IMG/VR virus record: IMGVR_UViG_2912391263_000005
Location: 1 to 64,000 of that record
DNA: 64,000 bases
Source: a virus
Strand: one strand, 5' to 3'
Positions 45,351-45,791 of the stretch are shown in pieces. Made by a program: the position numbers and the translations under genes. Below the pieces are notes generated by a model that worked only from the letters and a program-made list of their open reading frames with translations, was not told the DNA's origin and did not search any database. The stretch's first letter is position 1, and each line of letters starts with the position of its first letter.

Positions 45351-45791
45351 ATAAACAAAGTATTTTTCAACAGTGTTTTTATCTGTACCATTCTTTAAAT
45401 ATTCATAGCAGTTTATTCATGTTTTATGAGGTTTAAAATACAATACTGAATTTACTGCTTATTTTTACACTACTGCATAAACTTTGTATTCTAATAGAAA
45501 ATAGAGTTGTGAATGAAAAATACTTATTTCTATTACAAAAGGTAAAAAAATATCGATTTAAAAGCTAAATGGACACATGAGTTTGGGATTTTTCTACTTC
45601 AATTTCAAAATGAGAGTAGCAGATAAGGGGATGATAGGAATGTACCAAATACTAATCTAGATACAATATGCATATATAGGCTACACTTCTTTAGATTTTT
45701 TGATTAAGAACATAATAAATAGTTTACGTCGATACTTATTAAGTTATCGACGTTTTTTATTATAAAAAAATAATAAAGGAGGTTTCTTGAT

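Follow-up and report, generated by a model that had tools for sequence, protein, structure and literature searches.

Why does the same short hairpin stand at a near-constant distance ahead of several gene starts in one stretch of DNA, and does it act there as RNA or as DNA? We addressed this question for positions 1 to 64,000 of the IMG/VR virus record IMGVR_UViG_2912391263_000005, a 64-kb stretch that we refer to as the window. The hairpin, here named T2, occurs three times, each time shortly upstream of the start of a surface-adhesin gene or of its remnant, and in most related loci it is preceded by a conserved upstream open reading frame (uORF) of 11-15 codons. We tentatively read T2 as the terminator arm of a leader-peptide attenuator that would gate adhesin transcription, a reading that we hold at somewhat below an even chance.

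Three copies of one hairpin

A sequence-only reading of the window had proposed a stem shared by three sites, and a pattern search bears this out. Matches to ACGTCGNTA-N(4-16)-TANCGRCGT are confined to the three places listed below, with 5 strand-matches observed against 0.01 expected in shuffled sequence. The three copies of T2 are designated sites 1, 2 and 3:

45726-45753, plus strand: T2 site 1, ACGTCGATA-N10-TATCGACGT, T-run at 45754-45759; no uORF upstream
47720-47747, plus strand: T2 site 2, ACGTCGTTATC-ACTTTT-GGTAACGGCGT, then TTTTGTTTT
62813-62840, plus strand: T2 site 3, ACGTCGTTAT-CATTTGAA-ATAGCGACGT, then TTTTTT

By reading of the sequence, the stems comprise 9 base pairs (bp) without a mismatch at site 1, 11-12 bp including two G·U pairs at site 2 and 10 bp including one G·U pair at site 3, in agreement with the earlier description of 9- to 11-bp stems that differ by wobble or compensatory changes and are each followed by a T-run. 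Folding of 41-nucleotide (nt) segments yielded energies of -11.9, -15.1 and -11.9 kcal/mol (z-scores -4.8, -6.3 and -3.9) for sites 1, 2 and 3, respectively, and at site 2 the plus strand folds far better than the minus strand (-15.1 versus -7.1 kcal/mol). A generic terminator scan independently flagged sites 2 and 3. Start codons follow the hairpin end after 38, 43 and 43 nt (ATG 45792, GTG 47791 and ATG 62884), and a ribosome-binding site (RBS) lies 7-8 nt ahead of the start codon at all three sites; the constant spacing claimed before is thus real, and we attribute it to shared ancestry of the cassettes. Because the segment at 45.7-47.8 kb is a decayed paralogue of that at 55.6-62.9 kb, the three hairpins are paralogous copies of one element, and their spacing reflects common descent of three paralogous cassettes and not independent convergence.

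Stem variation points to an RNA hairpin

In order to distinguish an RNA structure from a DNA site, we compared 14 distinct homologous leaders bearing T2. In their alignment 98% of the 153 stem cells pair and 8 of the 11 pairs vary: position 4 occurs as U-A, U·G and C-G, position 7 as U-A, U·G and A-U. When the two arms are slid to other registers, only 25-65% of the cells pair. G·U pairs fill 26 of the 153 stem cells (17%). These pair only in the plus-strand transcript and become A·C mismatches on the other strand, which explains why the plus strand folds better, with -10.7 to -16.8 kcal/mol compared with -1.7 to -10.8 kcal/mol for the minus strand in nine of ten loci. The half-sites of a palindromic operator would be symmetric as DNA; here, the left arm carries T and the right arm, read as reverse complement, carries C at positions 4 and 10 in most loci. 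Variation that is confined to places where wobble is tolerated indicates, as far as the alignment can tell, a hairpin of the sense transcript rather than a symmetric protein-binding palindrome. Furthermore, a U-tract of the form TTTT(T/A/G)T... follows every T2 copy, and together with the stable plus-strand stem-loop this gives T2 the sequence features of a predicted intrinsic terminator. Of the functions put forward in the sequence-only reading, the RNA-level ones (terminator or insulator, attenuator) are therefore favoured by the G·U pairs and the plus-strand folding, whereas a DNA site for a dimeric regulator is disfavoured.

A search of Rfam 15 with the leaders returned no matching family, either at the gathering score or at E<=5. 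A resemblance to BglG/SacY-type ribonucleic antiterminator (RAT) sites and to ANTAR dual hairpins was considered, compared with the sequences by eye and dropped.

A conserved mini-ORF lies upstream of T2

In the full cassette, the gene of a LysM protein is followed right after its stop codon by a terminator, T1, then by the sequence TTTGGAG(G), an ATG and a tiny ORF; after a short spacer come T2 and about 40 nt that hold the RBS, and finally the gene of an LPXTG adhesin of the thioester-domain (TED/VaFE) type. The tiny ORF, which had gone unmentioned in the sequence-only reading, is present with a Shine-Dalgarno (SD) sequence and ATG in 11 of 12 leader classes and in most of them has 11-15 codons. 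The SD sequence, GGAG(G), is located 5-10 nt ahead of the ATG in each uORF-bearing class; the exception is site 1, which is devoid of a uORF. In the window the corresponding features are:

62713-62736, plus strand: T1, weak terminator of the LysM gene, GCAAGAA-TTT-TTCTCGC followed by T7; the uORF SD comes directly after it
62753-62788, plus strand: uORF of site 3, MNELPRVRSPD*, SD GGAGGAG at 62741-62747
47670-47741, plus strand: uORF of site 2, MKCVQIRAPDKNRRDSSRRYHFW* (begins MKCVQIRAPDK...), 23 amino acids (aa), SD GGGAGGG at 47652-47658

The uORF sequence of site 2 is also found in many Enterococcus gallinarum assemblies. The related loci, designated by L numbers, encode the following uORF peptides:

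L001: MNALPRVRSPDQIE
L002: MDALPRVRSPDQIE
L143: MNTFPRARAPDQIE
L125: MKKYPRARSPDQIK
L145: MMRKYPRARSPDQIK
L146/L148: MMRKFPRARSPDQPK
L149: MMNSLPRVRSPD
L150: MYIWIRAPDII
L127/L144: MIYIRVRAPSH

All share a core [V/A/I]-R-[A/S]-P-[D/S], within which R-[A/S]-P is invariant, while the N-terminal codons 2-4 vary freely. Pairwise differences between core codons number 8, 6 and 28 at codon positions 1, 2 and 3, respectively, and synonymous codons replace one another in the core (AGA/CGT for Arg, TCT/TCA/TCC for Ser, CCG/CCA for Pro and ATA/ATC/ATT for Ile). Since the differences fall mainly on third positions and include such synonymous swaps, the codon pattern indicates purifying selection on the C-terminal peptide core. 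Selection on the residues made last is what would be predicted for an arrest-type nascent peptide. The peptides are hydrophilic and short (11-15 aa, 23 aa at site 2) and possess no N-terminal signal or transmembrane segment. In the literature that was searched, no paper mentions them.

In L127 (3340-3425; identical in L144) a small GTGAG-N6-CTCAC hairpin spans the R-A-P codons. The L127/L144 arrangement suggests, judged from its sequence, that the uORF may also act at the level of translation.

Leader geometry

T1 belongs to sequence families that differ between loci (mean identity 0.62), whereas T2 is nearly fixed (0.81, loops included). This turnover of T1 next to a nearly fixed T2 argues that T2 is probably more than a generic gene-end signal. 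The uORF stop lies 9-12 nt ahead of the stem in six classes, so that a terminating ribosome would just fail to reach the stem. At site 2 the stop falls inside the 3' arm of T2 as the result of a frameshift after RAPD in an A/G-rich spacer, the same spacer that holds a pentanucleotide repeat at site 3. In the lineages of site 3, L076/L124 and L149, a nonsense change right after the Asp codon shortens the uORF. The only repeat found in the leaders consists of 2-4 GAATA copies at or downstream of the stop codon; in the window it is the following feature:

62787-62805, plus strand: GAATA pentanucleotide repeat (3.8 copies) in the spacer that separates the uORF stop from T2 at site 3

L076 and L124 have one GAATA copy fewer, which changes the distance from stop to hairpin by 5 nt.

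Distribution of the module

The LysM-adhesin gene pair was found in E. gallinarum, E. hirae, E. avium, E. faecium and E. faecalis, and its carriers include an E. gallinarum plasmid, a conjugative Enterococcus megaplasmid, E. gallinarum chromosomes and metagenome contigs. Throughout 241 kb of related loci, every T2 copy is on the gene strand and just ahead of an adhesin-type signal peptide. The LysM proteins of these loci are only 47-75% identical, while the T2 stem sequence is almost invariant. In contrast to this linkage, a genome scan with the bare motif gave at least 120 matches that were almost all unrelated terminators from many phyla, with one homologue (L076) among the matches listed; the scan is therefore not usable as a census, and the bare hairpin motif is an ordinary terminator form that is uninformative alone. 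The association with surface-protein genes that had been suspected before consequently holds for homologous copies, which always precede TED-adhesin starts, and does not extend to non-homologous matches, which are ordinary terminators in unrelated bacteria. Searches of PLSDB by blastn and tblastn recovered the module on two plasmids only, and one E. faecalis plasmid has the gene pair without the module. Both uORF and T2 are missing from more distant cassettes (E. faecalis L123 and L141, E. hirae L152). No matches to the uORF core were obtained in the viral contigs scanned.

A proposed leader-peptide attenuator and its rivals

The hairpin, its RNA-type covariation, the uORF with its coding-type conservation and the linkage to adhesin genes can be read from the sequences, and they are the basis on which we propose an attenuator. 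The main reason for preferring it over a plain terminator is the conserved mini-ORF upstream. In addition, we found no convincing promoter between T2 and the adhesin start, so that adhesin transcription would mostly have to read through T2, and a terminator that is mostly read through would be an attenuator. Transcripts from upstream would have to pass T1 and then T2, and the behaviour of the ribosome on the uORF would modulate T2, such that uORF translation sets how often the hairpin forms. A ribosome at the uORF stop (9-13 nt ahead of the stem in the majority of lineages, within it at site 2) would hinder hairpin closure and lead to read-through, whereas a ribosome held at the conserved R-[A/S]-P would leave T2 free to terminate. 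Such a peptide-dependent pause could couple costly adhesin synthesis to the translation state or to a ligand. That transcription ends at T2, that ribosomes stall at the motif and which way the switch works are our inferences from comparative sequence evidence of a single homologous family.

Several observations weigh against this proposal. All leaders are homologous, and finding uORF and T2 together therefore amounts to one evolutionary observation only. Duplex folding of each T2 arm against its leader did not reveal a conserved antiterminator or anti-antiterminator pairing; the best arm-leader duplexes differ between loci and reach at most about half the hairpin energy. An apparent 'covariation' with a uORF Leu codon in L001 and L002 did not hold up, and an extra helix from RNAalifold (GUUUGG with CCRGAU, 6 bp) is weak, with several broken pairs, RNAalifold otherwise returning T2 only. 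We identified no leader promoter and none between T1 and the uORF; as the uORF directly follows T1, it would be transcribed only by read-through of T1. Most loci also have weak promoter-like hexamers that overlap with T2. Four classes (site 3, L076/L124, L149 and L150) place the uORF stop 19-30 nt from the stem, so that simple steric occlusion cannot be universal. The two parts of the module also occur apart: in L127/L144 the uORF ends 9 nt ahead of the adhesin SD and T2 is absent, and site 1 has T2 and no uORF and precedes a gene stub only. In E. gallinarum (L130) the site 1 hairpin lies 9 nt past the stop of a 303-aa gene of the XRE family with multiple helix-turn-helix (HTH) motifs, much like an ordinary terminator. 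A fourth LPXTG gene of the window (57808-60693) has its own near-consensus promoter, TTGACA-18-TAAAAT at 57712-57741, with neither hairpin nor uORF. Finally, stalling by ApdA/ApdP is relieved when the A-site Pro is replaced (PMC10951233), and the uORFs place Asp or Ser at this position.

Foremost among the rivals is a plain terminator combined with an overlapping weak promoter. T2 would then be an ordinary terminator or insulator for the genes upstream (LysM, or XRE at site 1), the adhesin would have a weak promoter of its own that overlaps the hairpin and U-tract, and the uORF would be unrelated to adhesin control, either encoding a peptide that acts elsewhere or being a decaying relic. Unrelated bacteria commonly use the bare motif as a terminator, the E. 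gallinarum hairpin just described follows a stop codon as a gene-end signal would, and the L127 lineage manages without T2. Moreover, an E. faecalis plasmid has a different terminator at the same place, 35 nt before the adhesin RBS and without a uORF, and in most loci the hexamers TTATCN-18-TATTAT or TYGGTA/TTGAAA-16..18-TAAAAT overlap T2. However, these promoter-like matches are weak (8-9 of 12 positions), have no extended -10 and shift in spacing and position between loci, and a plain terminator leaves unexplained both the coding-type purifying selection on a uORF between two terminators and the near-fixation of T2 against the turnover of T1 in the same spacers. We regard this explanation as rather unlikely, while taking it seriously.

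T2 could also be a sequence-specific RNA target of a protein encoded by the element (an antiterminator, or a stability or processing factor) or of a trans-acting RNA, whose recognition would permit read-through or set the mRNA half-life and in which the uORF would play a minor part. Post-transcriptional regulation of adhesin operons by enterococcal plasmids is known, for example through PrgU and Anti-Q of pCF10, and the stem is almost invariant across loci whose LysM proteins have diverged and whose loops, spacers and T1 vary. On the other hand, we found no candidate RNA-binding protein among the neighbouring genes and no Rfam family match, and most stem changes are wobble transitions that pairing constraint alone would produce, which makes a dedicated RNA target improbable to us. 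We consider it more improbable still that a dimeric regulator binds the inverted repeat as a DNA operator over the -35 region of an adhesin promoter, and give this very little weight. Conserved arms flanking a variable centre of 6-10 bp, the overlap with weak -35-like hexamers and the XRE-family gene next to site 1 in E. gallinarum would fit an operator, but the half-sites are persistently asymmetric in most loci, G·U pairing and not the palindrome is what has been kept, the symmetry of the minus strand is poor (-1.7 to -6.6 kcal/mol in six loci), every copy has a U-tract, and no regulator gene accompanies the cassettes elsewhere.

Comparison with known systems

For the proposed attenuator, the closest documented system is the pil1 leader of Streptococcus gallolyticus. 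In this LPXTG operon the position of the leader-peptide stop relative to a premature terminator sets expression OFF or ON: a stop 39 nt from the hairpin gives OFF, a stop within or near the hairpin ON (PMC3894217). Like the T2 loci, pil1 (and pil3; Danne et al. 2014, PMC3894217) belongs to a Gram-positive coccus and has an LPXTG surface-protein gene downstream, and its short leader ORF with its own RBS is followed by a stem-loop terminator just upstream of the first structural gene. The stop-to-stem distance varies among T2 lineages too (9-13 nt, inside the stem, or 19-30 nt), and strains differ by one copy of the 5-nt GAATA repeat that lies in this interval. In pil1, however, 22 GCAGA repeats within the leader ORF serve as a phase-variation device and the peptide sequence is irrelevant, whereas the uORFs of the T2 loci have 11-15 codons, no long internal repeat and a selected C-terminal peptide core. 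Furthermore, the pil1 promoter was mapped directly upstream of the leader, while in the T2 loci none was found and terminator T1 precedes the leader.

The peptide core itself resembles the RAPP-like family of arrest motifs, which comprises RAGP of SecM, RAPP of ApdA/ApdP and RAPG of ApcA as well as cluster variants such as RAPS and RAPD (PMC10987492, PMC10951233, PMC12992588). RAPD, RAPS and RSPP appear in the catalogue of such motifs, which stall the ribosome once their third residue occupies the P site (PMC10987492). In common with the uORFs, such peptides are encoded by upstream ORFs and carry an invariant Arg-(small residue)-Pro close to the C-terminus; their N-terminal part is variable, and Ser at position 2 is partly permissive. 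Known members, in contrast, are monitoring substrates of about 50-150 aa with an N-terminal signal or transmembrane segment, lie upstream of secA, secDF or yidC, and act by exposing a downstream RBS; the strongest among them depend on an A-site Pro or Gly. The uORF peptides with their 11-15 aa fit wholly in the exit tunnel, have Asp or Ser after the Pro and are followed by a terminator and an adhesin gene. As they have no targeting segment, no sec or yidC gene downstream and no Pro or Gly in the A site, we do not class them as members; by analogy they may work like them. It is a doubtful possibility that they form a new class of very short ribosome-arrest leaders, RAPP-like at the peptidyl-transferase centre and without a membrane-targeting part, that gate a sequence-fixed terminator and tie output of the mating or colonisation adhesin of enterococcal conjugative elements to translation status or to a small molecule or antibiotic acting on the ribosome.

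A further parallel is offered by leader-peptide attenuators of mobile elements and resistance genes, where ribosome behaviour on the leader sets read-through. In Tn916, read-through feeds conjugation functions. These attenuators (Tn916 orf12-tet(M); mef/mel, PMC4335068; Bacillus subtilis yxjB/tlrB, PMC6851288) share with the T2 loci a short leader ORF that is followed by an intrinsic terminator, but have demonstrable alternative antiterminators and a resistance gene downstream, where the T2 loci have no conserved alternative structure and an adhesin gene. An R-x-R (+x+) motif, as in macrolide-responsive leaders, is present in 9 of 11 uORF classes and absent from site 2 and L150. With ordinary Rho-independent terminators, T2 has in common a GC-rich stem of 9-11 bp, a loop of 4-10 nt, a U-tract and the strand of the upstream gene, and ACGTCG...CGACGT(T)n recurs as a gene-end terminator across phyla. 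T2 differs from them in its location 38-43 nt before the start of the next gene with no clear promoter between, in a sequence that stays fixed while the neighbouring gene-end T1 turns over and in its coupling to a conserved uORF. The hairpin alone is thus a known kind of object, while an arrest-like micro-ORF combined with a sequence-fixed terminator ahead of mobile-element adhesin genes appears undescribed.

Genes around the hairpins and other features of the window

The hairpins had been reported upstream of the starts of all three LPXTG genes, a statement that is too broad: site 1 precedes a stub of 22 codons, the gene at site 2 is split and that at site 3 leaves the window. The genes concerned are:

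45792-45857, plus strand: truncated TED-adhesin gene (stub) that retains about 22 signal-peptide codons; stop within a T-run
47405-47644, plus strand: remnant of a LysM-protein gene, C-terminal domain; the deletion also took half of terminator T1
47791-52060, plus strand: TED/SpaA/TQ(VaFE)-repeat LPXTG adhesin gene of site 2, with Pfam and NCBIfam matches
61759-62694, plus strand: LysM-domain protein gene, upstream partner of the adhesin cassette
62884-64000, plus strand: second TED adhesin gene, 5' part, with a Pfam TED match; leaves the window before any anchor

In a tblastn comparison with the L127 adhesin, the site 1 stub matches residues 1-22 only. In many E. gallinarum chromosomes, stub and hairpin are kept near lepA, at 2 kb upstream of site 2 (L130 1389-1450). 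A supposed degenerate uORF (MRVADK...) and T1 remnant at site 1 were rejected, the stretch being the 3' end of the XRE gene. The site 2 adhesin gene is divided into 47791-51165 and 51176-52060, where the E. gallinarum homologue is a single ORF of 1427 aa; the interruption (51163-51178) is either that of a pseudogene or a sequencing error. The fourth LPXTG protein combines Chlamydia-PMP-type repeats with Cna_B, and a 9-nt tandem repeat is located at the 5' end of its gene (57809-57838).

A group II intron (53108-54900, with Rfam matches for D1-D4 and domain V/VI) carries a reverse transcriptase ORF at 53546-54820 and is inserted between adhesin cassette genes. A G-rich non-coding segment of about 400 nt is duplicated (45968-46316 and 55629-55985, 74-80% identity); it contains no ORF, has no Rfam match and shows modest fold stability with z about -1.9 on either strand. 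One copy is upstream of a 205-aa gene at 56235-56852, the other upstream of the remnant of that gene at 47043-47315. Assignment of 56235-56852 as ArdA was not supported by Pfam or PHROGs. The first part of the window (1-39300) is a complete-looking prophage adjoining a tRNA gene at 39476-39549, with genes for an integrase (4-1146, minus strand), large terminase (20618-22426), portal (22442-23662), tape measure (28231-32079) and endolysin (38261-39286).

Significance

In enterococci, conjugative plasmids and integrative elements carry TED/VaFE adhesins, and a related TED adhesin is needed for efficient conjugation of pLS20 (PMC8092201). If T2 turned out to be only a terminator, the finding would be routine, and the uORF would still be an unexplained conserved micro-gene worth annotating. 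If, however, uORF and terminator do gate the adhesin genes, this would be a new point of control over adhesion to other cells or to the host, as well as over gene transfer, in a genus of clinical relevance, and nascent-peptide control of the R-A-P type would extend to tunnel-length peptides and to genes outside the secretion machinery.
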